Notes under the pieces: model-generated | What the model was told of the DNA's origin: nothing | The model's database searches: none | What the model saw: only the letters and a program-made list of their open reading frames with translations | Assembly: GCA_028714495.1 (NCBI GenBank) | Contig: JAQTMH010000002.1 | Coordinates: 7,219 to 71,218, forward strand | Direction: 5' to 3' | Length of the DNA: 64,000 nucleotides | From: Patescibacteria group bacterium | GTDB taxonomy: Bacteria; Patescibacteriota; Patescibacteriia; JAHIZJ01 | Translations under genes and position numbers: made by a program | Shown: one piece after another, positions 6,435 to 20,543 of the stretch | Layout of the letters: each line of letters opens with the position of its first letter | Numbering within the stretch: position 1 is the stretch's first letter

Positions 6435-6569
6435 CTTTCTCTCGGCTGCCGCCAGTTTTGGTGTGAGTAGTTGACCCTAGTCGCACGAGATTCCCGAAAT
6501 GGGAACCGCGCTAGTCGGTACCAAGCTCTGGGCACTCAGTACCCAACACCATTCTGGCGGCTCTTTTTT
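6435..6569. ncRNA. Candidate structured RNA / long hairpin (closing stem GCCGCCAG...CUGGCGGC, internal GGUUCCCAUUUCGGGAAUC hairpin, U-run on plus strand)
   Basis: Roughly 200-nt non-coding, G+C-rich stretch between pgeF and a NUDIX gene with extensive self-complementarity. I could not assign a family or strand. Confidence 0.2.
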
Positions 6570-7036
6570 TATTTTCCTGCTTCAAGGTAAATCGCTTGGC
6601 CCTTTTGAAGCGCTTCAAGACATTTTGGCAATCTCGTCTTAAAATTTTCGCTTAAGAGCCGTGAAGCTTCGTTTATCTCAACAAAGCGATATTCGCTTAT
6701 TTCATCTTTTGGAATTTTAATATTCTCAATTTGCCCGGGTTGTAGAATACCGCCGGAAAATATGAAATGTAGCGCTTCACTTTTTTCTTCTTTCGGATAA
6801 AAATAATCAACGCAGATAAATTCCAGCCGACCAAGCGACAATCCGGTTTCTTCTTTTACCTCTCTCAAACAGGCTTGCCTAGGAGATTCGTTTTCATCGG
6901 CTACGCCGCCAGGCAGCGACCAGTGATCTTTATATGTTGGCTTAACAATCAAAAGTCTCCCCTGCTCATCAAATATCAAAGCTCCGGCGCTGATTCTTTT
7001 TTTTGGTAAATTTTGATAGTAGTTTTTTATATCCAC
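6569..7036 (-). CDS. NUDIX hydrolase
   Basis: Nudix box GGVADENESPRQACLREVKEETGL (GX5EX7REVXEETG). Confidence 0.75.
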   Translation of the reverse strand: MDIKNYYQNLPKKRISAGALIFDEQGRLLIVKPTYKDHWSLPGGVADENESPRQACLREVKEETGLSLGRLEFICVDYFYPKEEKSEALHFIFSGGILQPGQIENIKIPKDEISEYRFVEINEASRLLSENFKTRLPKCLEALQKGQAIYLEAGK

Positions 7037-7105
7037 AGAGGATTCATCCCTTCCAAAGCATCCCCGAAAATTGAATTTTCGGGGACGTCATATAGTCTGC
7101 TAGTA

Positions 7106-7624
7106 CTAATTATTTCCACTAAATAATTTTATTGTTTTCTCGATTTCTTCTGGAATGCCCTTTATGCACTCGTACTTTTTTACTTCCTCCGCATTAACCC
7201 AGGCGTAATCTGAAAAAGCGCCATCTTCAGGTTTTGCTTCCCCGCTTTTATATTTCGCGGCGAATTTGACCAGAACCACTGGGATTTCATCAGGTCTGAC
7301 AAAGGCGACGCTGTTTATGTATTTTAAATCCCTTTCGATATCAACACCGCCCTCCTCTTTAACCTCTCTAACTAATAACTCTTCAACCGCGTTTTCATAA
7401 TCCAAAACATCGCCATTCAACCTTGTCGGTTTAGTGATATCCATCTGCCCCCATTCTAATTTACCGCCAGGCACGCAATATATGCCTGGATGCACTTTTT
7501 CCTGATTGCTCCGCTTGAGAATCAGGCATCTTTTATCGCTTTCTCGGTAAACCACAACATTCGCCACAAAGTAGAATAGTTTGTTTTCCTTGGCTTTTTG
7601 TAGACTTATTTTAGTTGCTGGCAT
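7106..7624 (-). CDS. NUDIX hydrolase (second of three tandem copies)
   Basis: GGKLEWGQ...ENAVEELLVREVKEEGGV Nudix box. I prefer the internal start MPATKISLQ at 7624 over 7708 because it avoids overlap with the upstream gene. Confidence 0.6.
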   Translation of the reverse strand: MPATKISLQKAKENKLFYFVANVVVYRESDKRCLILKRSNQEKVHPGIYCVPGGKLEWGQMDITKPTRLNGDVLDYENAVEELLVREVKEEGGVDIERDLKYINSVAFVRPDEIPVVLVKFAAKYKSGEAKPEDGAFSDYAWVNAEEVKKYECIKGIPEEIEKTIKLFSGNN

Positions 7625-7667
7625 ATAGTGTTTAATTGCCCTCTTTATTCTATGACGCTTTTTACTT

Positions 7668-8216
7668 TTATTTCCGCGTCCCGGAGAATTTGAATAGATT
7701 CTTAACAATCATTATTCCAAAAGCCGCGATTGTCGGGCTGTCTTTAATTAAACCCTTGATAATCATGTTCTGAAATTCTTTAAGCGTGGCTCTTTTCAAT
7801 TTCATCCCCTTTTCGCTTTCTTGCAATTCCCGCTTGCCCTGGGATAGCTTTGTAGCCAGAAAAACATGGCAAATTTGGGAAGCTAAGCCGGGGGCCAGGA
7901 ATAAGCGGCTTATTTCTCTTATCTTATGGGCGGTTAATCCGGTTTCTTCTCTTAACTCTTCCTTGGCGGTCTCGTTGATTGATTTATGCTCAAAGTGTCC
8001 CTGGGGAAATTCCCACGAGAATTTATCAACCGGATAGCGGTATTGCCCGACCAAAAATAAATGGCGTCCGTTCCAAGGGATAATCAGGGCGAATGGTTTT
8101 TTACGCACTACTCCAAAGGTAAATTTCTTTCCAAACTCCGTAACCACCCGATCTTCCGCAACCTCCATCCAGTTATTTCTATAGATTGTTTTTGATGAAA
8201 GTTTTTTCCATTTCAT
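7668..8216 (-). CDS. NUDIX hydrolase (ADP-ribose pyrophosphatase-like)
   Basis: PQGHFEHKSINETAKEELREETGL Nudix box. Confidence 0.7.
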   Translation of the reverse strand: MKWKKLSSKTIYRNNWMEVAEDRVVTEFGKKFTFGVVRKKPFALIIPWNGRHLFLVGQYRYPVDKFSWEFPQGHFEHKSINETAKEELREETGLTAHKIREISRLFLAPGLASQICHVFLATKLSQGKRELQESEKGMKLKRATLKEFQNMIIKGLIKDSPTIAAFGIMIVKNLFKFSGTRK

Positions 8217-8219
8217 GAA

Positions 8220-9122
8220 CTAATAAATTAAATTAATTGGATCGCCCTTGATATAAGCTTCAATATTATCAATCATCATTTTGTTCCCCACCCGGTCAGT
8301 AACATCAGTGTTGTGAGCAATATGCGGAGTGGCTAGCACTTTCGAGTGTTTGGCATATTTTATGTATGATTCGTTATGGACATCACCGAACTGAATTGAA
8401 CCGCAGTCGCTGGCAATACCGGCCAGTTTTCCTTTATCTAGGGCTCCAAACATCGCTTTTTCATCATATATTTCCGAGCTTGTTACTGTGATAAAATACG
8501 AACCCTTTTTGAATGAATTGAAAAAATTCCTATCTAGCAGCCCTTTTGTACTTTCGTTTAAACTTAAAGCGTCAACCACAATATCAGCATCTTCTATTGA
8601 ATTGATTAAATCATCACCCCGAAGAAAAAATTTAACGTTCATATCGAATGATTCGCATATTTTACCAACTCTCGAACCAACATTTCCTTTACCTAAAATC
8701 GTGATATTCTTCCCGGTTAATCCTTTTGATGCCTCCGGTCGCCTAGTCTTCAAATTAAGAACATTGAGATAATTAGGCAATTCCCTAAACAAATTTAAAA
8801 TCATCGCAACTATCCACTCGCTAACAGCATCTTTATTACAGCCCGGACATCTGGATACTTTAATATTTCGAGCTTTTAATCTTTCGAGATCAAAAAATCC
8901 AACTCCTACAAAAGGTAAAGAAATAAAAATATCTTTTAGCTCATATACCTTTTGCTTTAAACCAAATTTTCCCGTACAAATAATATCAGCATTTTTACAT
9001 CTTTCTAGCCACTCGTCTGGTGTTTCGGCTAAGTCCTCATAATATTCAACTGTCCCTAATTTATTTAGTCTTTCCCTCTCCTCATTATTTAAATTTAAAT
9101 TTTGGGCGATTACGATTTTCAT
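8220..9122 (-). CDS. D-isomer-specific 2-hydroxyacid dehydrogenase family protein (NAD-binding)
   Basis: Rossmann motif ITILGKGNVGSRVG and catalytic-region ATPHIAHNT typical of D-2-hydroxyacid dehydrogenases. Confidence 0.7.
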   Translation of the reverse strand: MKIVIAQNLNLNNEERERLNKLGTVEYYEDLAETPDEWLERCKNADIICTGKFGLKQKVYELKDIFISLPFVGVGFFDLERLKARNIKVSRCPGCNKDAVSEWIVAMILNLFRELPNYLNVLNLKTRRPEASKGLTGKNITILGKGNVGSRVGKICESFDMNVKFFLRGDDLINSIEDADIVVDALSLNESTKGLLDRNFFNSFKKGSYFITVTSSEIYDEKAMFGALDKGKLAGIASDCGSIQFGDVHNESYIKYAKHSKVLATPHIAHNTDVTDRVGNKMMIDNIEAYIKGDPINLIY

Positions 9123-9227
9123 ATCATTTTATAAACGCTATTATTTCCCATGACACCCCGCATAACTCCACTGTACCGATGGCTTAGCACTCTGGTACAG
9201 GGTCGTTTGTGGGACAAGCTTTTTAGT

Positions 9228-11987
9228 TTATTTCCCATGACACTTTTTAAACTTCTTGCCGGAGCCACAAGGGCAGGGGTCGTTGCGGCCGATTTTTGAG
9301 CCGTCTTTGAGTCGCAACCTGCCTCCCTTAATTACCGTTCCGTCAATCGGTCCAGGCTTGGTCACGGTAGCGTCTTCTCCCGACGACACTTCATTATTTT
9401 TCTCAACCGGCGCCTGGGTCTGAATTTGCTGGAATTGTCCCCGGCCCTCCTGCATGGTCTTTGACGGGCCTGATTCGACTACTGGCCGCTGTTTTAAATC
9501 TTCCGGAGCCGCGTCCTTGGCTAGGCCAATCTTATAAATGCTGTAAACGACCTGGCTCTGGACGCTGGCGATCAGGCGCGAGAACATGTCAAAAGCCTCT
9601 TTTTTGTACTCAATCAGGGGGTCGCGCTGGCCATAACCGCGCAGGCCGATTCCCCTGCGCAAATAGTCGATCTCCTCGAGATGCTCCATCCAAAGAACAT
9701 CAATCGCCCGGAGCATGATCGCTCCTTCAATCTGATGCATGAGTTCGGGGTTATTGATTTTCTTCAACAACTGGTCATAGGCCTGATGAGCCAGCTCAGC
9801 GCAATAATTGTTCAGCTCGGTGCGAAGCTGGGCGACTTGCAACTTATTGCCCATGGCTGAAACCATCTGCTGCATTTTTTGCGGAACTTCGGAAGAAACG
9901 GGGAAGATTGTTGCCAGAACTTCGCATATTTCTTTAATATTCCAGTTCTCCCCTTTTTCATCCGAGGTATGGAAAAGAATTACCTGTTCAATCTCGTTTC
10001 CGACCATTTCCAGGATTTTTTCCCGAAGCTGCCCCTCATGTTCAGCCGCGTCCAAAATATCATTACGCTTTCGGTAAATTACTTCGCGATGCTTGTTAAT
10101 CACGTCATCGTATTCGACCAAGCGCTTTCGAATATCGAAATTGTAACCCTCAACCTTCCGCTGGGCCGACTCGATTGATTTTGAAATCATCCGGTTTTCA
10201 ATCGGCATGTCGTCCGGCACGCCCAGGCGCTCCATTATTTTCTTCAAACGCTCCGAGCCGAAAATCCTCATTAAATCATCGTCCAGCGAAACGTAAAAAC
10301 GCGACGCCCCGGGATCGCCCTGACGGCCAGACCGGCCGCGCAATTGATTGTCTATGCGACGGGCTTCGTGCCGCTCCGTGCCGATGACATAGAGTCCGCC
10401 CTCCTCAATCACTTTTTTGGCGTCGGCTTCGTCAAACGGCGTTCCGCCGAGCTTAATGTCCACGCCGCGGCCAGCCATGTTCGTAGCAATCGTAACCGCT
10501 CCGGGCTGGCCAGCCTGGGATATAATATTGGCCTCTTTTTCATGCTGCTTGGCGTTTAATATCTGGTGCGGGATTCCCTCGCGCTCCAGCGCTTCGCTCA
10601 AGCGCTCGTTTTTTTCTATGGAAATCGTGCCGACTAATACCGGCCGGCCCTTTTCGTGATTGCGCCTGATGTCTTCGATCACCGCTTGGAATTTGGCGGC
10701 CTCGGTTTTATATATATAATCACTGTTGTCTTTGCGAATCATCGGCTTGTGGGTCGGGATGATAACCACATCGAGACTGTAAATTTTCGAGAATTCCTCG
10801 GCCTCGGTCGCGGCCGTACCAGTCATGCCGGCTAATTTACTGTATATTCGAAAAAGGTTCTGGAAGGTGATCGTAGCCATGGTCCGGCTTTCCTGCCTGA
10901 TCGTTACTCCCTCCTTCGCCTCAATCGCCTGATGGAGTCCTTCGGAATACCGCCGGCCCGGCATCATTCGGCCGGTAAATTCATCAACGATAATCACCTC
11001 GCCCTCGCGCACCACGTAATCCTTGTCGCGTTTGTACAGGGCATAGGCCCGGAGCGCCTGTTCGATATGATGGACGTATTCTATGCCGCCGGTTACGTAG
11101 ATATTGCCGACTCCCAGCCACTTTTCCATTTTTTCAATGCCCGCTTCAGTTAAAGTGGCGGTCCGCATTTTTTCGTCAATGTTGTAATCTTCATTTTCCT
11201 TGAGCCGCGGGATCAGCTGGGCGAATTTGTAATACAGCTCATTTGACTCTTCGGCCGGGGAAGAGATAATCAAGGGCGTCCGGGCTTCGTCTATTAATAT
11301 GCTGTCCACCTCGTCAACGATGGCGTAATTGAGTTCGCGCTGGACCTTCTGCCTTTTGGAACTCACCATGTTGTCGCGCAAATAGTCAAAGCCAAATTCG
11401 TTGTTAGTGCCATAGGTAATATCAGCCAGGTAGGCTTCGGCGCGGCTGACCGGCCGCAGATACTTCATCGACTCTTCCCCTTCGGTATATTCGGGATCAA
11501 AAAGAAAAGCGGTTTCGTGCTGGATGCAGCCGATTGACAAGCCAAGTTTGTAATAAATCGGGCCCATCCAAACCGTATCGCGCCTGGCTAAATAATCATT
11601 TACGGTAATCAAATGCGCGCCTTTACCCGCGAGAGCGTTCAAAAAAAGCGGCAAGGTGGCGACCAGGGTTTTTCCTTCACCCGTCCGCATCTCCGTAATT
11701 TTGCCACGATGCAACACGATACCGCCCAATATTTGAACATCAAAAGGCCTCATGCTGACAAACCTTTTAGCTGATTCGCGCGCCAACGCAAAAGCCTCTG
11801 GCATTATATCGTCCAGAGACTTCCCCTGCTTCAATTGTTGCTTTAGCTCCTCGGTTTTTCTCCTTAGTCCCTCGTCATTCAAGCGTTTTATGCCAGGCTC
11901 AAAGGCATTGACTTTTAGAACCTCCTGCTCGAATTTAGCTACGATTCGCTTATTCGCGTCGCCGAAAAGCTTAGAAAGAAACGGCAT
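9228..11987 (-). CDS. secA: Preprotein translocase ATPase SecA
   Basis: 919 aa with DEAD-like motor motifs and a C-terminal zinc-binding tail CPCGSGKKFKKCHGK. Typical SecA N-terminus LSKLFGDANKR. Confidence 0.95.
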   Translation of the reverse strand: MPFLSKLFGDANKRIVAKFEQEVLKVNAFEPGIKRLNDEGLRRKTEELKQQLKQGKSLDDIMPEAFALARESAKRFVSMRPFDVQILGGIVLHRGKITEMRTGEGKTLVATLPLFLNALAGKGAHLITVNDYLARRDTVWMGPIYYKLGLSIGCIQHETAFLFDPEYTEGEESMKYLRPVSRAEAYLADITYGTNNEFGFDYLRDNMVSSKRQKVQRELNYAIVDEVDSILIDEARTPLIISSPAEESNELYYKFAQLIPRLKENEDYNIDEKMRTATLTEAGIEKMEKWLGVGNIYVTGGIEYVHHIEQALRAYALYKRDKDYVVREGEVIIVDEFTGRMMPGRRYSEGLHQAIEAKEGVTIRQESRTMATITFQNLFRIYSKLAGMTGTAATEAEEFSKIYSLDVVIIPTHKPMIRKDNSDYIYKTEAAKFQAVIEDIRRNHEKGRPVLVGTISIEKNERLSEALEREGIPHQILNAKQHEKEANIISQAGQPGAVTIATNMAGRGVDIKLGGTPFDEADAKKVIEEGGLYVIGTERHEARRIDNQLRGRSGRQGDPGASRFYVSLDDDLMRIFGSERLKKIMERLGVPDDMPIENRMISKSIESAQRKVEGYNFDIRKRLVEYDDVINKHREVIYRKRNDILDAAEHEGQLREKILEMVGNEIEQVILFHTSDEKGENWNIKEICEVLATIFPVSSEVPQKMQQMVSAMGNKLQVAQLRTELNNYCAELAHQAYDQLLKKINNPELMHQIEGAIMLRAIDVLWMEHLEEIDYLRRGIGLRGYGQRDPLIEYKKEAFDMFSRLIASVQSQVVYSIYKIGLAKDAAPEDLKQRPVVESGPSKTMQEGRGQFQQIQTQAPVEKNNEVSSGEDATVTKPGPIDGTVIKGGRLRLKDGSKIGRNDPCPCGSGKKFKKCHGK

Positions 11988-12396
11988 AATTGCGTTTTAC
12001 TAGTTTAATGAACCCGTCCGCCGTATCAGCGTCCAAAGACAGTCGCTCCATGGGGCATAAATCCCGAAGATTCTTATCCAATATTCGGTCAACTTTTTTA
12101 AGGTAATTGACAGGTATCCGGCTGGACCTCAGAATTTCTATGGCGGGCCGGCTGATAATCGGAGTATTAACCTTACGAAATTTGACTGAAATAATCAAGA
12201 AGGCCGCCGCCCGGCCGACGACTTTATCGTAGATTTCCGCGCCAGCCACCTCTTCTTTTGACAATTGATGAATTGCCTGCCATAACGGACTTATTCCGCC
12301 CATATTTGAACGGAATAAGACTTTGTTTCTCTGGGTAATAACAATTGACCAGGGTCCGGCATTAAACCGTTCCAGGTCAGATTTAGTTTTGGTCAT
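11971..12396 (-). CDS. Hypothetical protein
   Basis: ORF track 141 aa. No family recognised. Confidence 0.4.
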   Translation of the reverse strand: MTKTKSDLERFNAGPWSIVITQRNKVLFRSNMGGISPLWQAIHQLSKEEVAGAEIYDKVVGRAAAFLIISVKFRKVNTPIISRPAIEILRSSRIPVNYLKKVDRILDKNLRDLCPMERLSLDADTADGFIKLVKRNYAVSF

Positions 12397-12941
12397 TTAT
12401 TATCCTTTTCCAGATAATGAAACAGCCATTTAACCAGTATGACGACTAGAGCGAATTGGATCAATATTCCAGGCCAGCCGACCTTTACCACGTTGACAAT
12501 GATATCCATGAATCCGATTTTTGAGCCGAGAAACAGCGCGGCCACAGCCAGAGCTAACCGACCGATCACCATCGCGCCAATTAATGAAACCCAGGTATTC
12601 ATCTTCAATGGACCTCTTAATACCCCCGCTGATAAACCGTAGGCGGCGATTTCGACTGTAATTTGGGGCAGTACCGGAAGCAGGGGCATGCCCGAAACTA
12701 AATAACTGACCAGGGGCGTAATAATCCCGACAGCCAGACCGACTCGCCAGCCGGCTAACAAGGCAGCCACTAACACAAAAAAGTGCATGGGCAGATAGAC
12801 CGAGCCGGCCAGATTGAATTGATGGGCTACCCAGGGCAATCCGACTGACAAGGCCGTGAAAATAGTTGAGAATAAGGCCCATTTAAGCGTGGATAGTTTT
12901 ACGGTTGTTCTGGAATAGATTTGGGCAGGCGAATTAAACAT
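12393..12941 (-). CDS. Membrane protein, ECF-transporter S-component-like (substrate unknown)
   Basis: 182 aa, about 5-6 TM helices, Gly/Pro-rich helices (GIITPLVSYLVSGMPLLP) resembling ECF substrate-capture components. It sits downstream of the polyamine operon. Confidence 0.4.
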   Translation of the reverse strand: MFNSPAQIYSRTTVKLSTLKWALFSTIFTALSVGLPWVAHQFNLAGSVYLPMHFFVLVAALLAGWRVGLAVGIITPLVSYLVSGMPLLPVLPQITVEIAAYGLSAGVLRGPLKMNTWVSLIGAMVIGRLALAVAALFLGSKIGFMDIIVNVVKVGWPGILIQFALVVILVKWLFHYLEKDNK

Positions 12942-12951
12942 ATATTTTCTC

Positions 12952-13842
12952 CTATTTATTACGCAGTAGATTTATTATTATATGATAGGTTAATTTTGCC
13001 GCTAAAAAATTCGGGGCGTCGAGACCGGGAATCGGCTTTAATTCCACGACATCAGCGCCGACTAGATTGACCTTGGCCGCGACTTTATTGATAATCTCCA
13101 AAACCTGATACCAGCCCAAGCCGCCTGGTTCGGGCGTGCCAACTGACGGCATAATCGACGGATCCAGGCAATCAAGGTCAAAGGTTAAATAAACGTTTTT
13201 GGTTAATCCTTTTAAAATCTTTTCAAGTGGCGGAATCTCCGGCGCAAAATAGATATTCTTTAATTTCTTCGCCTTGATATATTCCCGCACCTCTGGATTC
13301 ATGTTCCGAATGCCGATCGAGACAAAAGGTATTTTCAACTCACTGATCCGCCGCATAGTACAGGCATGGGAATATTTTGTTCCATCAAGCGAATTCATCA
13401 AATCAGTATGGGCGTCTAAGTGGAGAATTGAGATATCTCTGTATTTCTTCCTGAGCGCCCTGACCGCGCCGATGGTAATCGTATGCTCGCCACCAAGCAT
13501 TAATGGAATTTTATTGTGCCTGATTACTTCATTATTAACCGCCTGTTCAATTCCTGCTATCGCTTCCAGCGCTGAATTTTTCGAAACATTCACTTCATCT
13601 AGCGTAAATATATCAGTCGCGTGTAAACCTATGACTTCCCCGGTTTCTTTCGGATCATCCAGCTCGTCCAGTTCCCGCGAACTCTCAATGATCGCCTGCG
13701 GTCCGGCGCTCGTCCCGGTTCCGGATGAAACGGTTGCTTCATAGGGAATGGGTAAAACAACGACTTTAGCGGCGCTGAAATCCTGCCTTTTAATCGTGCC
13801 GAAATTAAACGGCCAAAGATCGTAAAGTTTTTTCATTATCAA
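12952..13842 (-). CDS. speB: Agmatinase / ureohydrolase (arginase family)
   Basis: Arginase-family Mn-binding motifs GGEHTITIG, LHLDAHTDL and TFDLDCLDPS. Confidence 0.75.
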   Translation of the reverse strand: MIMKKLYDLWPFNFGTIKRQDFSAAKVVVLPIPYEATVSSGTGTSAGPQAIIESSRELDELDDPKETGEVIGLHATDIFTLDEVNVSKNSALEAIAGIEQAVNNEVIRHNKIPLMLGGEHTITIGAVRALRKKYRDISILHLDAHTDLMNSLDGTKYSHACTMRRISELKIPFVSIGIRNMNPEVREYIKAKKLKNIYFAPEIPPLEKILKGLTKNVYLTFDLDCLDPSIMPSVGTPEPGGLGWYQVLEIINKVAAKVNLVGADVVELKPIPGLDAPNFLAAKLTYHIIINLLRNK

Positions 13843-14965
13843 AATTCTTCTTAATCTTCTTTTTAGCCTTATCTAATCTTTCAATCGCGCCCTTAATCAA
13901 TAGCGGCCAGACCATGGTGGCGTCGCTTAAAACCTCCGCTTGCTGGCCACCGTTTTTTTGGTCAACAAACTTCCCCCATGATACTCCCTCGGAATAGGTA
14001 CAACCGGATAAACCGCCCCAATTAACCGGCTCGGGACAAATTCTTACTCCGTATTTGTATGGTTTCCAATAAGGACTCTTTTCATCAAAATATTTTTCCT
14101 TTTTTGATTTATCCACGATACGGTAGCGTATCAAATCCAGATACGGCGCGACTTGCTGAGCCCAATTGCGCGGCACGCCTCCGCCGATGGTAAAAATCCC
14201 GGTAGTTTTTTGGCGGAAAATCAATTCGGTAAAGTGCTCCAGGTCGGCGAAAGGATTGTAATTAAGCGGTTTTTTATTGGCTAGTTTTCGCCTTCTGTTA
14301 TAAAGAGCGAAATCGAGACCCAGCTCTGAATCAGTAAGCGCCGGGATATAAACCGGGATGTTGTTCTCAAAAGCGCTTTTTAATATGCCCCGTCCCTGAC
14401 TTTGCTTATGTAGATATTCACCAATACTCTGAGACAATAGGCGCGAGCAAATCGTATCCTCAGGAGTGAATTCCACGAATACTTTGTCCACAATTTCATT
14501 AAGGTCGTCTAGGTTTTTCTCGACCTCCAAAGTGTCGTAAACCCGATCAAAACCCTCCTTGTATAATACCTTATCCGACACGTCAAAATCATACTTGAAG
14601 TGAGTCATGCCGGTATTTTCGACCAGTCCGTGGGTAATTAGCGCTCCAGTAGAAACAATCGCCTGAACCATTCCTCTTTCGATCATCTCACAGATAATCA
14701 AGCCCATCTTGGCCACCGTCATGGCTCCAGATAAAGTCATAACCACGAAACAGTCCGGATCGGTAACCATATTATAAAATACGTCAGCCGCCTCGCCCAG
14801 TTTCCTCCCGCCAAAGGACGTCTTCGACATAGCCTGAAGCAACTCATCGGCATTATGAATCTTATTTAAATCCAACGATTCAACCGGCGTGAAATTAAGG
14901 TGCTTTGCTGAATTTGCCCCTCCAGGCGATTGTGCGCGTTTCCTCATAGTTTTATTACCAACCAA
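13805..14965 (-). CDS. Deoxyhypusine synthase-like protein (DHS / homospermidine synthase-like, NAD-dependent)
   Basis: MVTDPDCFVVMTLSGAMTVAKMGLIICEMIERGMVQAIVSTGALITHGLVE matches the DHS family core. Confidence 0.7.
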   Translation of the reverse strand: MVGNKTMRKRAQSPGGANSAKHLNFTPVESLDLNKIHNADELLQAMSKTSFGGRKLGEAADVFYNMVTDPDCFVVMTLSGAMTVAKMGLIICEMIERGMVQAIVSTGALITHGLVENTGMTHFKYDFDVSDKVLYKEGFDRVYDTLEVEKNLDDLNEIVDKVFVEFTPEDTICSRLLSQSIGEYLHKQSQGRGILKSAFENNIPVYIPALTDSELGLDFALYNRRRKLANKKPLNYNPFADLEHFTELIFRQKTTGIFTIGGGVPRNWAQQVAPYLDLIRYRIVDKSKKEKYFDEKSPYWKPYKYGVRICPEPVNWGGLSGCTYSEGVSWGKFVDQKNGGQQAEVLSDATMVWPLLIKGAIERLDKAKKKIKKNFDNEKTLRSLAV

Positions 14966-16481
14966 ATAATTTTGTTATATCATCTGGTGTTTGCCGCCTG
15001 ACCGCCACTTTTATTTCTCCATTCCGGGCCACGATTTTTGCCGGCGAGGACAGCAGGCAGTGGTTACAGGCTAATGAATCCTGATAAGCGCCAGTGCTTA
15101 GAAAGGCGATGTATTGAGCTTCACCTTCGGGCAGGTATTCCAAATTTGGCAATAATACGTAAGTTCCATTGGCCGTATATTTATCATCCGAGTCGCAGCT
15201 CGATCCGGCCACCCAGCTTCGGATTAACTTCCTTCCCGAATAATTCAAATGGTTTACCGGTACGACGTGCCACCTCTGATGAATCGTCCAAGTGTCCGGT
15301 AAATCATTCATGAAACTGCCGTTGATCACCTGCCATTTTTTGGCATTGCCATGGATAATTTTTTTTTCGCCGATAACCTTATAAATGGTCACCTGGGCGG
15401 GCGACACCATGAATCTGCCCCATTCACAGACAATATTGGGATGAGGGATGTCGTATTTATCAGCCTTAGATTGGAGAAAGCGGATTATCTTTCTGGCTAG
15501 GCCTTCAAAGCCGTAACGCTTTTGCAAGTCATAAGGAATCGGCATGCCTCCGCCGATATCAATCGTATCAAGCGAGGGATTGTGCTTTTTCAGCTCGGCG
15601 TATATCTTAAAACATTTTTTCAAAGGGGTCATCAGATCGTGCATATGCTCGACTTGCGAACCCACGTGATAGTGAATCAGGCAAAGGTTTCTTATTTTTT
15701 TCATTTTCAATACTTCATCAGTGGTCAAACCATAACGGTTTATCTTTTTATCCCAGTGCGAGGTAACCTTCACATCTAAATCAACCCGGACGCCGAGCTC
15801 CCCTTTATACTTCGAAAAAAATTCCAGTTCGTTGGTATCTTCGATAACCGGTATTATCTTTAAATTTTTGCCTTGCAGCTCTTCGATTAATTCCAGATAT
15901 TCGCGGGTCTTTGGTCCGTTGCAAATAACTCTAATGCTCGGCAAAAAGCTGTTTTGTTCCCAGAGTTTTTTTACCAGGTACAGTTCATTATAGGAAGCCG
16001 TCTCTAGATTCGCGCCCTCGGAAACCATCGATAGGATCACTTCCTTGTTCTGGTTCACTTTCATCGGGTAGTGATAGAAAAATTTTCCGTGGTAACGATG
16101 GTATTTTATTAACAGATTAAAAAGGTCAATTAAATTTTGCAGACGATCTTTTACGATAAACGGAAAAAATATCTCAACCGGCGTTCCATATTTTTCGACG
16201 ATATCCTTTACTGTGTATTGATAATTCCCTTCCTTGACAACCAGATTGCCGTCACGACTGACGTCAAAATAATCCGTATGAAAATCCTTTTGACCGAGAC
16301 GCCAAAAATTTCTCAGACGCTTGAGCTGAATTTGTTTTATCAGGGTTTCTGTCTCGGCAATTTCTTCGCGGCCGTTCTTCGCTGCGACTGGTGGCTCAGA
16401 CGGTTTATCCGTTTTAATCGGCCGACCATTTTTTTCTGGCGACTTTATCTCAACTTCAGTCGCTATCTTTGTTTGATTAAT
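14955..16481 (-). CDS. speA: SpeA-type biosynthetic arginine decarboxylase (PLP fold-III Orn/DAP/Arg decarboxylase). The ATG-initiated ORF (start 16064) is N-terminally truncated; the frame is open upstream to 16508
   Basis: The track ORF begins inside the PLP-lysine motif (YHYPMKVNQNKEV, equivalent to YPIKVNQ). The in-frame upstream translation has no stop for about 148 codons. It reads RNFWRLGQKDFHTDYFDVSRDGNLVVKEGNYQYTVKDIVEKYGTPVEIFFPFIVKDRLQNL, which matches the SpeA N-terminal region. GGG motif DIGGGMPI and EPGR-like CEWGRFMV are further downstream. There is no in-frame ATG/GTG/TTG upstream. Candidate AUU start at 16481-16479 is preceded by AAGGAG. The end coordinate is uncertain. Confidence 0.65.
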   Translation of the reverse strand: MNQTKIATEVEIKSPEKNGRPIKTDKPSEPPVAAKNGREEIAETETLIKQIQLKRLRNFWRLGQKDFHTDYFDVSRDGNLVVKEGNYQYTVKDIVEKYGTPVEIFFPFIVKDRLQNLIDLFNLLIKYHRYHGKFFYHYPMKVNQNKEVILSMVSEGANLETASYNELYLVKKLWEQNSFLPSIRVICNGPKTREYLELIEELQGKNLKIIPVIEDTNELEFFSKYKGELGVRVDLDVKVTSHWDKKINRYGLTTDEVLKMKKIRNLCLIHYHVGSQVEHMHDLMTPLKKCFKIYAELKKHNPSLDTIDIGGGMPIPYDLQKRYGFEGLARKIIRFLQSKADKYDIPHPNIVCEWGRFMVSPAQVTIYKVIGEKKIIHGNAKKWQVINGSFMNDLPDTWTIHQRWHVVPVNHLNYSGRKLIRSWVAGSSCDSDDKYTANGTYVLLPNLEYLPEGEAQYIAFLSTGAYQDSLACNHCLLSSPAKIVARNGEIKVAVRRQTPDDITKLFGW

Positions 16482-16537
16482 TTCCTTAGCTCCTTTTTTG
16501 GTAAATAATTATTTTAACAACTTTAATAACATTGATT

Positions 16538-16906
16538 CTATTTACTCGCTTGTGGATAACTTTTATCAAAATTTTTATCTGAAGACTTCCTCAATTTTCG
16601 CATCCGACGCGAATATTTTTTTTCTTTGTAACGAATTAGTTGGTTGGCTATTTTTTCATAAGCCAAGTCTATCGCCTCATGCATTTCCGAAGCCTTGATT
16701 CCGGTTTCCAGCGTTTTTTCCGGTAAATATAGCCAAATTTCAACGCGATTGATATCTCCAGATTTTTGATTCCGGTCAAAGTCAAGCTCTACCTTCGCTT
16801 TCAAAATTTCCCGATAATATTTTTCCAGATGAGAAATTTTATCAGTCACGTAACTTTTTAGCGAAGGCGTTAATTTAAAATTTTTTCCTGTTAAAATTAT
16901 TTTCAT
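16538..16906 (-). CDS. hpf: Ribosome hibernation promoting factor / RaiA (sigma-54 modulation protein family)
   Basis: MKIILTGKNFKLTPSLKSYVTDKISHLEKYY...VELDF is typical of HPF/YfiA. Confidence 0.8.
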   Translation of the reverse strand: MKIILTGKNFKLTPSLKSYVTDKISHLEKYYREILKAKVELDFDRNQKSGDINRVEIWLYLPEKTLETGIKASEMHEAIDLAYEKIANQLIRYKEKKYSRRMRKLRKSSDKNFDKSYPQASK

Positions 16907-16981
16907 ATAATAACTATTTCAACTTCCCTAGTATAAAATTTTATTCCAAAAAAAGCAAGGCCTCAAACTAACCGGCCTTGA

Positions 16982-17449
16982 TCAAATTACGGCTCCGGAT
17001 TTCATTTTATTTATTTTTTTCGGCTTGGTAATATTCGGAGGATGGTTGTATATGGGTTTTACAAATTCTGTTTTACTGATTTTTCCCAGTCGCATCCTAT
17101 CAAAAACATTTTTAATCATGAAATCACCTGTTTTGGCAACGGCATATAACGGCATCTGAAGAGAAAAATGCAACGCGTTGGCTATGGCCACGCTGACTCG
17201 CACTGCCGTGAATGGTCCCGGCCCCTTCACCACGACCAGTCCTGTTAAGTCTCTAAGCTTGATATTCTTGCGATGAAGAAAGCGCTTCAAGGTGACCAGA
17301 AGCTCGTCCCTATTTTGATAATCTGTGGCTGATTTAAACGCGTAATATCTCTGGCCCAAGATTAGCCCAAATTCAACTTTGTCTTGACCCGTAGCATCAA
17401 TTATCAATATTTTATTGCTTCGTTTTTTTGGTCTATTCTCATTTGCCAT
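16982..17449 (-). CDS. tsaB: tRNA threonylcarbamoyladenosine biosynthesis protein TsaB-like (YeaZ N-terminal domain, short form)
   Basis: ILIIDATGQDKVEFGLIL...LTGLVVVKGPGPFTAVRVSVAIANAL resembles the TsaB/YeaZ N-lobe. Confidence 0.55.
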   Translation of the reverse strand: MANENRPKKRSNKILIIDATGQDKVEFGLILGQRYYAFKSATDYQNRDELLVTLKRFLHRKNIKLRDLTGLVVVKGPGPFTAVRVSVAIANALHFSLQMPLYAVAKTGDFMIKNVFDRMRLGKISKTEFVKPIYNHPPNITKPKKINKMKSGAVI

Positions 17450-17538
17450 AATAACCGGCCTGATAAGCTAAATAAAATTATTCAAGCCTAAGCGGCCCAA
17501 ATTATATTTGCTAATTAATGACTGTGATCGAAATACCT

Positions 17539-18111
17539 TCAGGGCTTTTTAGATTTTCTAAGTTTATCAACGACCACTATTTTTTTATTTTCCAAAACTT
17601 GAAAAAGGAATCTGTCGGTTAACTGCCGCCGGTATTCGAATTCCTTTACAGTCATAATCGTGTAATTGATGTCGTGGTCAAAATATTCCTGAAATTTTTT
17701 CATCAGCCGACTGAGTTTTTGGCGATTTACCTGGCCCACGAGCAAGAGATCGGTGGCAATATCTTTCCGGCCGACAAATTGTCCGGTTAAAACTAAAAAG
17801 CTGATTTTGCCTAATTGACTGATCGCCCGCGTAAAATTTTTCTCCAGCATGACCTGGGCCTTCAGCATCAATGATTTAAGCTCGGGATAGAGCGGGAAAT
17901 CTTTTTTTAAAGTGTAATATTTCTTGCGCTTACTTTCACGCGTTTCAACTATCCCCATTTCTTCAAGGTTGTTTAGTTCCTGGCGGACGCTGTTGATGCG
18001 CTGGTTTATTTTTCGCGTAAGTTCACGGACAAAATATGGTTGATCGGGATTAGAAAAAAATAGTCTAAATAGCTTTACCCGCGTTACTGAACCAAATAAT
18101 TGTTCAAGCAT
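17539..18111 (-). CDS. Winged-helix (HTH) transcriptional regulator, hypothetical
   Basis: N-terminal VTRVKLFRLFFSNPDQPYFVRELTRKINQRINSVRQELNNLEEMGIV winged-helix pattern. Divergently arranged with the PP2C-like gene. Confidence 0.45.
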   Translation of the reverse strand: MLEQLFGSVTRVKLFRLFFSNPDQPYFVRELTRKINQRINSVRQELNNLEEMGIVETRESKRKKYYTLKKDFPLYPELKSLMLKAQVMLEKNFTRAISQLGKISFLVLTGQFVGRKDIATDLLLVGQVNRQKLSRLMKKFQEYFDHDINYTIMTVKEFEYRRQLTDRFLFQVLENKKIVVVDKLRKSKKP

Positions 18112-18209
18112 TTTATTCTAAACTATTATATTAATTTACACAGTCAGTATAGGCCATTGTTGCCTGGCTGTAAAGAAAATATATTATCCTTGCCTTTATC
18201 CAAAATATA

Positions 18210-20543
18210 TTGTATAAATATAGAAGAAGTTGCATCATTCCACCCTATTTTATGCCCAGCGTTAGAACAGACATCAGTCCCTTTTTACTGCACAATCCTC
18301 AATCTAGCAATGAGGAAATTTCGCTTTTAGTCAGCCACCCGAGCCCCCAGGAGCTCCAGTCCCTGGGTCGCCTTTTTATGCTTCTGAAATTGTCGCCGGC
18401 CAATGAACAGACCAAGAAAATCATCGGCACCATTGAGCAGGAGGGGAAGCTTTTCTACTATCAACAGCTCGAGTCCAACGTTGAACTGGCATTTGAAACC
18501 ACGCTGAAAAAAATTAACGAGCTTCTGAGCAATTACCTCGAGCACGTCTCGGCTGAATGGCTGAATGACTTCAACGCGATTATCGGAGTAATCCGCGGCA
18601 GCGACATGTACTTCGCTCAAGTCGGCAATTTTCAGGCCTTTCTCATCCACCGCATGCGGGTGGTCAATATTCTCGAAAAAACCAAGGGCGCGGAAACCAG
18701 AATCAACCCTCTCAAAATATTTTCTCAGACTATTTCCGGCCAGCTAAACCCTGATGATGCCCTGGTTTTTTGCACCTCAACCGTGCTCGATTATCTTTCC
18801 TTGGAACGCCTCCGCACAATCATCCAGTCCTCCCCCACTTCCCAGGCAGCTCTGACTCTGGAAAACCTGCTCATGTCAAACAGCGATACCAGCGGTTTCG
18901 CGGCTTTGCTTATCAAATTAGTGCCGGAAACCATTGCCGTACCCTCGTTGGCCAGGACCAGCCAGCCCGGCTACAGCCGAGGAGCGCCCCAGGAGTCGAT
19001 GGAACAGCTTCGGAGCCGCGAATCTTCGACTACCGAGCTTCTGGCCCCTTCGAGCGCGCTGTTTTTCAAGAATCTATTTCGCCGAGCCGGAGACCGCATC
19101 GGAAAAATCTCTGAAAATATCGGCCTTAAGCCAAAGATTTCCCAGCGCCACCGCCCGACAGAAGTTCAGTACTATGCCCCAGTCCGGGAAAGCTATAAAC
19201 AGTCGCGGCGGCCGCGATATTCCTCACGCTTCGTTTACGTGTTGGGACGGATTCTGACCGGACTCCAGTTGACCGCGAATTTCTTGAAAAGAATGTTCCT
19301 GGGATTATTCGGCGTAATCAGCGGCCGAAAAAATATCACCCAAAAACTTCAGCATCTTCCAACCAACGCCTCGACCTCGGTTTCCAAGCAGATTGTCTTC
19401 TTCCAAAAACTCACTCGGCGCAGGAAAGTTCTGCTGCTGGTCTTTGTCCTGATAATTTTCATCTTCGCTCAAAGTGTGATTATTATAAACCGGAATAAGG
19501 AAACTAAAAAACAATTAGCCACTTACCAAGACTCTCTCAACCAGGCTACGACCAAGGAGCAGGACGCCGAGGCGGCCATGCTTTATGGCGACGAAAATAA
19601 TACCCGCACGCTTCTGAAACAGGCCACGGATCTGATAGCCAGCATACCGGAAAAGGAACGAGAGCACCGCTATCAGGCCGAGATCGCCGGGCTGATGACA
19701 AAAATTGACTCGCTCGCCCTCAAAACTAAGCATATCAACACCATCGCCGAGCCGACGCTGCTGGCTGATTTAGCGACGGCCGGCACCGAAGTTGCCGCTG
19801 GCGGCCTGGCCGGAATATTCGGCAGCGACATCGTCGCTTATTCAACAAATAAATCAGAACTTTACCAGGTGAATGTCGACGAGAAAAAGCCGGCCAGCAT
19901 CGCCTTCACCGAAGCCAAGGATCAAACTGTCCGCTTTTCCGCTCCCCTTTCGAATAATACGGCTCTGCTGTATTTATCCAACGACACTTTGCTCCAATAC
20001 AAATCAACTGACGATTCCTTCACTGCCCTGACTATCGATTTCGAAAACCAGGACCGGACCCTGGCGGGTATGGCAAGTTACCTTGACCGAATCTACACTC
20101 TCGACACGAAGAATAACCAGATCTTCCGCCATCAAAAATCCGGCAATCAATACCAAAAAGGCGCGAGCTGGCTGACCCAGGCTGAGGCGGATGTGAAAAA
20201 CGGGGTTGACCTCGCAATTGACGGCTCAGTCTTTGTCCTGAGATCAGACGGCCAGCTGACTAAATTCGTCCAGGGCGCGACTGATACGTCATTTTCCTTG
20301 AATGCGATTGATCCGGCCATCTCCAGCCCGACCAAGCTCTGGCTCGATGTAGACACTACCTATCTCTATATCCTCGAACCCAGCCAAAAACGCCTGCTCG
20401 TCTTCACCAAAACCGGCAAACTGAAAAACCAGTACGCTTCCAATGCTTTTGATAATCTTCTGGATATGGCAATAAACGAAAAGGACAAGAAGGCCTATTT
20501 GCTCAATGGGACAAAGATTTTCGGGGTGGATTTGCTGGAGTAG
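18210..20543 (+). CDS. PP2C-type (SpoIIE-like) serine phosphatase domain, one TM helix and a C-terminal beta-propeller-like repeat domain
   Basis: PP2C-like core IIGVIRGSDMYFAQVGNFQAFLIHRMRV...DALVFCTS. TM segment VLLLVFVLIIFIFAQSVIII. C-terminal repeated beta-strand motifs (DRIYTLDTKNNQIF, GSVFVLRSDGQLTKF, YLYILEPSQKRLLVF). Exact start uncertain. Confidence 0.55.
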   Translation: MYKYRRSCIIPPYFMPSVRTDISPFLLHNPQSSNEEISLLVSHPSPQELQSLGRLFMLLKLSPANEQTKKIIGTIEQEGKLFYYQQLESNVELAFETTLKKINELLSNYLEHVSAEWLNDFNAIIGVIRGSDMYFAQVGNFQAFLIHRMRVVNILEKTKGAETRINPLKIFSQTISGQLNPDDALVFCTSTVLDYLSLERLRTIIQSSPTSQAALTLENLLMSNSDTSGFAALLIKLVPETIAVPSLARTSQPGYSRGAPQESMEQLRSRESSTTELLAPSSALFFKNLFRRAGDRIGKISENIGLKPKISQRHRPTEVQYYAPVRESYKQSRRPRYSSRFVYVLGRILTGLQLTANFLKRMFLGLFGVISGRKNITQKLQHLPTNASTSVSKQIVFFQKLTRRRKVLLLVFVLIIFIFAQSVIIINRNKETKKQLATYQDSLNQATTKEQDAEAAMLYGDENNTRTLLKQATDLIASIPEKEREHRYQAEIAGLMTKIDSLALKTKHINTIAEPTLLADLATAGTEVAAGGLAGIFGSDIVAYSTNKSELYQVNVDEKKPASIAFTEAKDQTVRFSAPLSNNTALLYLSNDTLLQYKSTDDSFTALTIDFENQDRTLAGMASYLDRIYTLDTKNNQIFRHQKSGNQYQKGASWLTQAEADVKNGVDLAIDGSVFVLRSDGQLTKFVQGATDTSFSLNAIDPAISSPTKLWLDVDTTYLYILEPSQKRLLVFTKTGKLKNQYASNAFDNLLDMAINEKDKKAYLLNGTKIFGVDLLE

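Follow-up and report, generated by a model that had tools for sequence, protein, structure and literature searches.

We analysed a 64,000-nucleotide stretch of DNA from a Patescibacteria group bacterium (contig JAQTMH010000002.1 of assembly GCA_028714495.1, positions 7,219 to 71,218), hereafter the window, and focused on a minus-strand gene cluster at positions 12393-16510. Three consecutive genes of this cluster encode an arginine decarboxylase (ADC), a homologue of deoxyhypusine synthase (DHS) and a ureohydrolase of the arginase family. We put a probability of about 0.8 on the reading that they constitute a three-gene route from arginine to homospermidine in which putrescine is bypassed. The evidence for this reading comprises the gene identities, the catalytic motifs, the SpeY-type signature and clade membership of the DHS homologue, and a conserved gene linkage that persists even where the ADC is replaced by a non-homologous enzyme. 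Homospermidine synthesis, which a preliminary description of the window had offered as one option, emerges as the best-supported function. The locus is most likely an ordinary example, in Patescibacteria, of a pathway published between 2024 and 2026. To what is known of that pathway it adds one more member, from Patescibacteria, a clade that is uncurated, and an ADC whose start is non-canonical.

The proposed route begins with decarboxylation of L-arginine to agmatine, which would be carried out by a short decarboxylase of the alanine-racemase (AR) fold. The DHS homologue would then oxidise one agmatine with nicotinamide adenine dinucleotide (NAD), hold the resulting 4-guanidinobutyl unit as an imine on Lys332, and hand it on to another agmatine molecule at its primary amine. 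The coupling product would be N1,N9-bis(guanidino)homospermidine, known as G44G, caldomycin or diagmatine, and the arginase-family enzyme would take two urea groups off G44G to give sym-homospermidine. The enzyme CdmS of Thermus thermophilus uses agmatine as its sole substrate, accepting neither putrescine nor spermidine, and a ureohydrolase turns the caldomycin it forms into homospermidine, as Kobayashi et al. 2024 (PMC10981699) showed. SpeY was taken from seven bacteria of diverse phylogeny, which use ADCs of three unrelated folds, and in every case produced G44G from agmatine and required a ureohydrolase for homospermidine (Li et al. 2026, PMC13625781). The same authors report that SpeY-associated 'agmatinases' hydrolyse G44G with undetectable activity on agmatine, and argue that SpeY would be left without substrate in the presence of a canonical agmatinase, so that putrescine is bypassed. 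The order of agmatine followed by putrescine given in the preliminary description is probably wrong, since CdmS and SpeY use agmatine directly and the associated ureohydrolases lack detectable agmatine activity. The role that it regarded as unclear and potentially novel has likewise been superseded by these two studies.

The DHS homologue is encoded on the minus strand at 13805-14947 (PF01916, E = 6e-77) and is 380 amino acids long from its ATG at 14947. Residue numbers given here count from an alternative TTG start at 14965, which yields 386 amino acids. The sequences of CdmS, cyanobacterial SpeY (CsSpeY), and human and plant DHS used for alignment were taken from the supplement of Kobayashi et al. 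2024. The catalytic lysine is Lys332 (codon 13972-13970), in the motif SWGK, and is equivalent to Lys329 of the human enzyme and Lys299 of CdmS. The NAD-binding motifs TGA (T106-G107-A108), D212, GGG (261-263) and DA (348-349) are intact and align with the human NAD-binding residues. The preliminary description had proposed looking for loss of these catalytic and NAD-binding residues; they are present in the window protein and invariant in 22 of its relatives.

The substrate pocket is of the SpeY type. Human residues Asp243, His288, Asp316, Glu323 and Lys329 correspond to Leu217 (codon 14317-14315), Asn267 (14167-14165), Leu319 (14011-14009), Glu326 and Lys332 of the window protein. At the same five positions CdmS has F/N/L/E/K and cyanobacterial SpeY has M/N/L/E/K. 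The retained Glu326 is the equivalent of Glu293, a glutamate proposed to bind the guanidino group. The two changes from aspartate to a hydrophobic residue, which in CdmS are Phe204 and Leu286, have been described as active-site differences from human DHS (Kobayashi et al. 2024, PMC10981699). Asparagine replaces His288 in the window protein, CdmS and cyanobacterial SpeY, whereas the genuine archaeal DHS 8put still has histidine. Hydrophobic replacement of Asp243 and Asp316 with retention of the glutamate is a signature found in 84 of 84 family loci. A SpeY-type insertion following the GGG motif is also common to the window protein, CdmS and CsSpeY, and is absent from eukaryotic DHS.

A phylogeny, which the preliminary description had recommended, separates the DHS homologue from true DHS. 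In a neighbour-joining tree of 20 taxa with five reference sequences, one of them (8put) partial, the window family, CdmS and CsSpeY split from eukaryotic DHS and archaeal 8put in 100 of 100 bootstraps, and the window family grouped with CdmS in 65 of 100. The window protein belongs to a third, uncurated SpeY-like clade. Members of this clade are marked by the motifs GGGVPRNW(A/G)QQ and Y(G/A)(V/L)RICPEP, number at least 597 representatives among species genomes, and occur in Patescibacteria, in DPANN archaea and in several further phyla of bacteria. By analogy with its characterised relatives, the DHS homologue is predicted to be an agmatine homocoupling (G44G or diagmatine) synthase of the SpeY/CdmS type.

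The active site bears directly on a classical route to the same product. Here agmatine made by the ADC would be converted to putrescine by a true agmatinase, and the DHS-like enzyme would form homospermidine from putrescine, alone or with spermidine, in the manner of eukaryotic DHS or plant homospermidine synthase (HSS). Both aspartates that bind the amino groups of spermidine or putrescine in the human enzyme are leucine in the window protein, and His288 is replaced by asparagine as in the agmatine-using enzymes. Eukaryotic DHS is able to make homospermidine from putrescine and spermidine, and the ureohydrolase lies above the NCBI agmatinase cut-off with annotated agmatinases as its nearest solved relatives, both of which suit the classical route. 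CdmS, however, uses neither putrescine nor spermidine (PMC10981699), the bacterial SpeY enzymes that were tested all depended on a ureohydrolase for homospermidine, and with a canonical agmatinase the substrate of SpeY would be depleted (PMC13625781). The cluster also lacks an aminopropyltransferase or SpeD gene as a possible source of spermidine. We consider the classical route improbable.

The ureohydrolase gene (12952-13836, minus strand; PF00491, E = 5.7e-63) encodes a SpeB-like protein of 294 amino acids, and its longest open reading frame (ORF) extends to 13842. The Mn-ligand motifs GGEH (115), DAHTD (141) and DLDCLD (220) are intact, and the nearest relatives in the PDB are the agmatinases 3lhl and 3pzl. 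We predict that this enzyme is a G44G (diagmatine) ureohydrolase (DUH) yielding homospermidine, an assignment made solely because its gene adjoins speY.

We surveyed the genomic context of 91 loci, 12 of which are distinct Patescibacteria loci. Genes for a decarboxylase, the DHS homologue and a ureohydrolase are consecutive in nine of these 12, with the ureohydrolase gene directly downstream of the DHS homologue, so that the linkage to ADC and ureohydrolase genes raised in the preliminary description is conserved. The decarboxylase is a short AR-fold ADC in seven of the nine loci and a pyruvoyl ADC (PF01862) in the other two, where PvlArgDC occupies the exact ADC slot (L003, 5358-5993; L022, 555-1091). 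In a Saccharibacteria locus (L020, 3566-5152) a SpeD-like plus ornithine decarboxylase-like decarboxylase is divergent from the adjoining DHS homologue, and many acidobacterial members of the clade are convergent with a neighbouring pyruvoyl ADC. Because unrelated decarboxylases replace the ADC while the other two genes stay, the job of the first gene would be agmatine supply, and this non-homologous replacement is strong contextual evidence for it. One Patescibacteria locus (L087, 1268-2599) has a gene for a 443-amino-acid ATP-grasp protein (GARS_A/GARS_C, PurD-like) that separates the ADC gene from that of the DHS homologue.

Gene neighbourhoods also inform the possibility that the DHS homologue modifies a protein. 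In such a scheme the enzyme would attach an agmatine-derived 4-guanidinobutyl unit to a lysine residue in EF-P or in some other protein, after which the ureohydrolase would trim it to a deoxyhypusine-like residue. Bacteria are not known to have the eIF5A/aIF5A substrate. Patescibacteria are not known to have the usual enzymes of EF-P modification, a point that counts in favour of this scheme. Its archaeal counterpart is a model put forward for Haloferax, in which DHS transfers agmatine to aIF5A and an agmatinase-like step follows (PMC5178350). The DPANN members of the clade come from Woesearchaeota and Micrarchaeota (L002/L006, L007, L009-L014, L016, L063), are 55-63% identical to the window protein and carry the same SpeY-type Leu/Asn/Leu signature. 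Some of them stand alone beside translation genes, namely those for eIF-1A, S8e and L37e (L002), and two adjoin an arginase-family gene (L011, L012), which is also compatible with protein modification. Against this, none of the 91 loci has an EF-P or aIF5A gene up to about 7 kb from the DHS homologue, in a search that a very divergent homologue could escape. A search of the window itself for EF-P, with the same limit, gave no match. A 2026 review finds no experimental evidence tying bacterial DHS orthologues to EF-P (PMC12856214), and the window protein groups with the small-molecule-coupling SpeY and CdmS rather than with true DHS, sharing their change of His288 to asparagine. We therefore regard protein modification, and with it the (deoxy)hypusine-type option of the preliminary description, as highly unlikely.

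A broader version of this idea is that the GGGVPRNW clade is a dual-purpose agmatine-dependent transferase. It would be the only DHS of DPANN archaea, making agmatine-derived deoxyhypusine on aIF5A, and in Patescibacteria it would modify EF-P or another protein besides, or instead of, forming homospermidine. If true, bacteria would thereby have their first hypusine-like modification; we see very little chance of this. Whatever their function, the DPANN clade members bear on the question, posed by Li et al. 2026, of agmatine-dependent archaeal DHS homologues.

The first enzyme of the homospermidine route is a decarboxylase dependent on pyridoxal phosphate (PLP), encoded on the minus strand at 14955-16481 (Orn_Arg_deC_N, E = 8e-27). 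The PLP lysine is Lys141 (codon 16061-16059) in the motif PMKVNQ, and the motifs HVGSQ, GGGMP, CDSDD and GAYQ are also found. The best NCBIfam and PDB matches are SpeA, with scores of 216-219 bits for the speA models and 148 bits for lysA, every one of them under its cut-off. Alignment with SpeA of V. vulnificus (3n2o) matches ADC residues 91-373 with SpeA residues 54-363, and ADC residues 385-488 with SpeA residues 469-573. Only 11 ADC residues (374-384) lie opposite SpeA residues 364-468, and the four-helix-bundle insertion of about 105 residues is absent. Judged from its sequence, the enzyme is the short 'ancestral' AR-fold form described by the Michael laboratory. The preliminary description, which called it a SpeA-type ADC, had the arginine decarboxylase family right; the protein is not a full-length SpeA. 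The specificity of AR-fold enzymes cannot be deduced from homology alone (Li et al. 2026, PMC13625781). Since all equivalog scores fall below their cut-offs, arginine specificity cannot be read from the ADC sequence, and it is the gene context that supports L-arginine as the substrate.

The ADC gene is unusual in its start. Its frame is open from 16508 to 14958 and ends at a TAA stop (14957-14955), and ATG, GTG and TTG are all absent from this frame upstream of the PLP-lysine motif. The mechanically called ORF begins at the ATG at 16064, where the methionine directly precedes the PLP lysine (P-M-K-V-N-Q), and the resulting 369-amino-acid product has lost the N-terminal part of the barrel. The frame continues for 148 more codons upstream of this ATG, and these encode a block at the N terminus (LKRLRNFWRLG...YFD...EGNYQY...PVEIFFPF) whose sequence is conserved among ADCs from related Patescibacteria. 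An in-frame ATT (16481-16479) sits 8 nucleotides (nt) behind the Shine-Dalgarno sequence AAGGAG (16495-16490). We take this ATT as the start because of that spacing, because a recognisable Shine-Dalgarno sequence precedes only six of 40 window genes, and because AAGGAG occurs with a frequency of about 3e-4 per position. Initiation at ATT 16481, which would give 508 amino acids, is most likely. Alternatively, a seven-codon mini-ORF (ATG-MLLKLLK-TAA, from the ATG at 16532 to the TAA at 16509) lies in the ADC frame directly after the stop of the preceding HPF gene, and may allow termination and reinitiation into the ADC gene. An error of sequencing or assembly was rejected as the cause of the absent start, as the same sequence is present in two other assemblies.

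The absent start codon could also mean that the cluster is decaying, with the ADC a pseudogene and the pathway either inactive or fed by imported agmatine. The ADC genes of relatives L001, L004, L090 and L091 begin with ATG, and gene callers yield only the truncated 369-amino-acid product here, both of which fit decay. The 508-codon frame is nevertheless unbroken and the ADC is 56-60% identical, over its whole length, to the functional-looking ADCs of related Patescibacteria. The strong AAGGAG element ahead of the in-frame ATT stands out where so few genes have one, the same sequence recurs in the two other assemblies, and the downstream genes are intact. Decay of the cluster is on this evidence quite unlikely.

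Several observations weigh against the homospermidine route. The activities of enzymes in the window's clade are taken from homologues, and what each of the three enzymes consumes and makes is inferred. The DHS homologue shares only 33% of its residues with CdmS, 22% with CsSpeY and 25% with human DHS, and the tree that groups them has few references (five), one of them partial. CdmS Ser67, a proposed binder of the guanidino group, is alanine in the window protein, as it also is in CsSpeY. No curated NCBIfam equivalog is passed: the G44G synthase model NF002699 scores 198 bits against a cut-off of 500, and the best sub-threshold model, NF002006, is labelled 'deoxyhypusine synthase'. The ureohydrolase scores above the TIGR01230 'agmatinase' cut-off (209.8 versus 174.3 bits), and no known sequence signature separates G44G ureohydrolases from agmatinases. 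The ADC lacks a canonical start codon, so that its expression is only predicted. Lastly, DPANN archaea carry the close homologues described above, some of them standing alone in typical archaeal contexts, and these might act on aIF5A there.

The NCBIfam scores can be placed in a wider frame. The window protein scores 176 bits with NF001980 (cut-off 450), and the controls CdmS (545 bits) and CsSpeY (588 bits) pass their own models. Other clade members, from Acidobacteria, Myxococcota, Woesearchaeota and Eubacteriales, pass no NCBIfam model either. The SpeY models are clade-specific, and the clade of the window protein is simply uncurated. We rejected the label of NF002006 as a sign of true DHS, as CdmS and CsSpeY likewise have it as their second-best model.

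Among known systems, CdmS (TTHA1570) and SpeB of Thermus thermophilus (PMC10981699) offer the nearest tree reference (65 of 100 bootstraps). The window protein shares with CdmS the DHS fold, the catalytic lysine, the guanidino-binding glutamate, hydrophobic residues at the Asp243 and Asp316 positions, asparagine at the His288 position and the insertion after GGG, and the Thermus pathway is likewise fed by an ADC and finished by a ureohydrolase. It differs from CdmS in overall sequence (33% identity), in having leucine for Phe204 and alanine for Ser67, in having Arg-Asn-Trp for Lys-Asn-Phe after GGG, in about 17 extra residues in the insertion, and in its score with the NCBIfam model (198 versus 545 bits, cut-off 500). 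The Thermus ADC is also of the long SpeA form, whereas that of the window is short.

The SpeY cluster of Winogradskyella algicola, which consists of an ancestral AR-fold ADC, SpeB and SpeY (Li et al. 2026, PMC13625781), has the same three-gene architecture and a short ADC without the four-helix bundle. ADCs of other, non-homologous kinds (pyruvoyl PvlArgDC, SpeD-like) occur both in published SpeY clusters and in sister loci of the window, as does a ureohydrolase beside speY (the 'speY + duh module'). The window differs from the clusters of that study in its gene order (ADC, SpeY, ureohydrolase) and in its non-canonical ADC start, and Patescibacteria were not among the phyla tested there. SpeY of the cyanobacteria Anabaena and Cylindrospermum (NF001980, 'homospermidine biosynthesis protein') is a DHS homologue needed for homospermidine that shares the asparagine and leucine signature and the catalytic lysine. 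It is 22% identical to the window protein and lies in a separate clade, and the window protein scores 176 bits with its model against a cut-off of 450. Eukaryotic and archaeal DHS (human 6XXJ; archaeal 8put and 7cmc) share PF01916, the NAD motifs, the catalytic lysine and presumably the enzyme-imine mechanism. They differ in the spermidine-binding Asp243 and Asp316 and in His288, all replaced in the window protein, in overall sequence (25% identity to human DHS) and in their 100 of 100 bootstrap separation. The bacterial HSS of Blastochloris viridis (4TVB) reaches the same end product, homospermidine, with a non-homologous, putrescine-dependent enzyme, and the window cluster contains no HSS-like gene.

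If the homospermidine reading is correct, a Patescibacterium with a reduced genome has retained, in three genes, the whole way from arginine to homospermidine. Patescibacteria are generally described as lacking most biosynthetic pathways. The first step is re-supplied by unrelated decarboxylases in related lineages, which argues that the polyamine is important to them. The agmatine/diagmatine pathway would then extend to Patescibacteria and to a large uncurated clade, whose current database labels are 'deoxyhypusine synthase family protein' and 'agmatinase'. Three likely annotation errors would be corrected as well: the DHS homologue probably acts as a G44G synthase and the 'agmatinase' as a G44G ureohydrolase, and the ADC is truncated owing to its ATT start. 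No mechanistic questions are opened beyond those of Li et al. 2026.

The four co-oriented minus-strand genes within 12393-16510 are confirmed as real, and Pfam matches bear out the identities first given to the ADC, the DHS-like NAD enzyme and the arginase-family ureohydrolase. They form part of a head-to-tail array (11971-16906) that opens with the HPF gene (16538-16906, minus strand). The fourth gene encodes an ECF-S-like protein (12393-12941, minus strand; 182 amino acids), a 5TM membrane protein with a marginal match to PF12822 (33.9 bits, cut-off 30.7). Beyond it lie the genes for a TM1506/DUF1893 protein with a deaminase-like fold (11971-12396, minus strand; PF08973, E = 1.1e-26) and, overlapping the TM1506 gene at the end of the array, SecA (9228-11987, minus strand). 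Since the co-directional array and its overlaps run on past 12393 through these two genes, close packing is the rule in this region and is not in itself a sign of where an operon ends.

The overlaps between the polyamine genes depend on the starts chosen. Those first described, at 14955-14965 and 13805-13842, hold for the ORFs of greatest length, which begin with TTG; in independent gene calls on identical contigs the starts are ATG. With ATG starts, 7 nt separate the ADC stop (14955) from the start of the DHS homologue (14947), and the ureohydrolase gene, beginning at 13836, shares 32 nt with the end of the gene for the DHS homologue (13805). The latter overlap is taken as real because the C-terminal tail of the DHS homologue, which lies behind it, is kept in the closest relatives. 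The DNA at 11901-17500 (5.6 kb) is 100% identical in two other assemblies (SRR22315509 and SRR22315508). An Rfam scan of 11800-17600 for riboswitches or leaders returned just a sub-threshold chance match to sR52 (24.7 bits, where the gathering score is 50). A promoter and terminator scan of 9000-18300 gave counts not above those of shuffled controls, with no internal terminator found between genes. In the protein database the ECF-S-like protein is present at 100% identity and the best match to the DHS homologue is at most 71% identical, although the same contigs carry a called 380-amino-acid DS gene. This gap probably reflects indexing or clustering and not biology.

The ECF-S-like protein is probably a partner of TM1506 and not part of the polyamine pathway. 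Its gene has its own Shine-Dalgarno sequence (AGGAG), and its stop overlaps the start of the TM1506 gene by ATGA. The protein is 100% identical to an NCBI entry from a metagenome-assembled genome, 'ECF transporter S component [Patescibacteria group bacterium]'. In Patescibacteria the gene invariably sits between those for the ureohydrolase and for SecA, at times with an FmdE-domain gene or MFS fragment intervening. As SecA is conserved beside it just as consistently, its linkage to the polyamine genes amounts to lineage synteny. Outside Patescibacteria the ECF_trnsprt and TM1506 genes are again paired and overlap in the same way, with no polyamine genes present (L088, 5001-6022; L089, 5001-5967). 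Operons of TM1506 with a '5TM channel' have been described, and binding of NAD or ADP-ribose by TM1506 has been predicted (Iyer 2011, PMC3239186). A search of the window for an ECF energising module with the Sporomusa EcfA and EcfT genes found just generic ABC ATPases (27% identity) and no EcfT, for which the query was partial. The two genes are a separate module that sits beside the polyamine cluster through lineage synteny. A role of the ECF-S-like protein in polyamine transport is not supported, and neither is the suggestion in the preliminary description that it is a cognate transporter, although it could conceivably import a substrate.

The intervening FmdE-domain gene encodes a small protein (PF02663, 126 amino acids) between the ureohydrolase and the ECF-S-like gene in three loci (L001, 8026-8406; L004, about 8953-9219; L087, 4611-4991), and is absent from the window. 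On the other side of the array, 3' of the SecA gene and a 2-hydroxyacid dehydrogenase gene, the window has three NUDIX hydrolase genes in succession (6569-8216, minus strand). A Cu-oxidase_4 (YfiH-like) gene and then a YkuD L,D-transpeptidase gene with FG-GAP repeats follow this trio. NUDIX and NADAR genes also come after SecA in relatives L090 and L091. On the plus strand, at 18210-20543, a TTG-start ORF of 777 amino acids has no Pfam match, and a homologue of about 763 amino acids occupies the same position in L084, L090 and L091.

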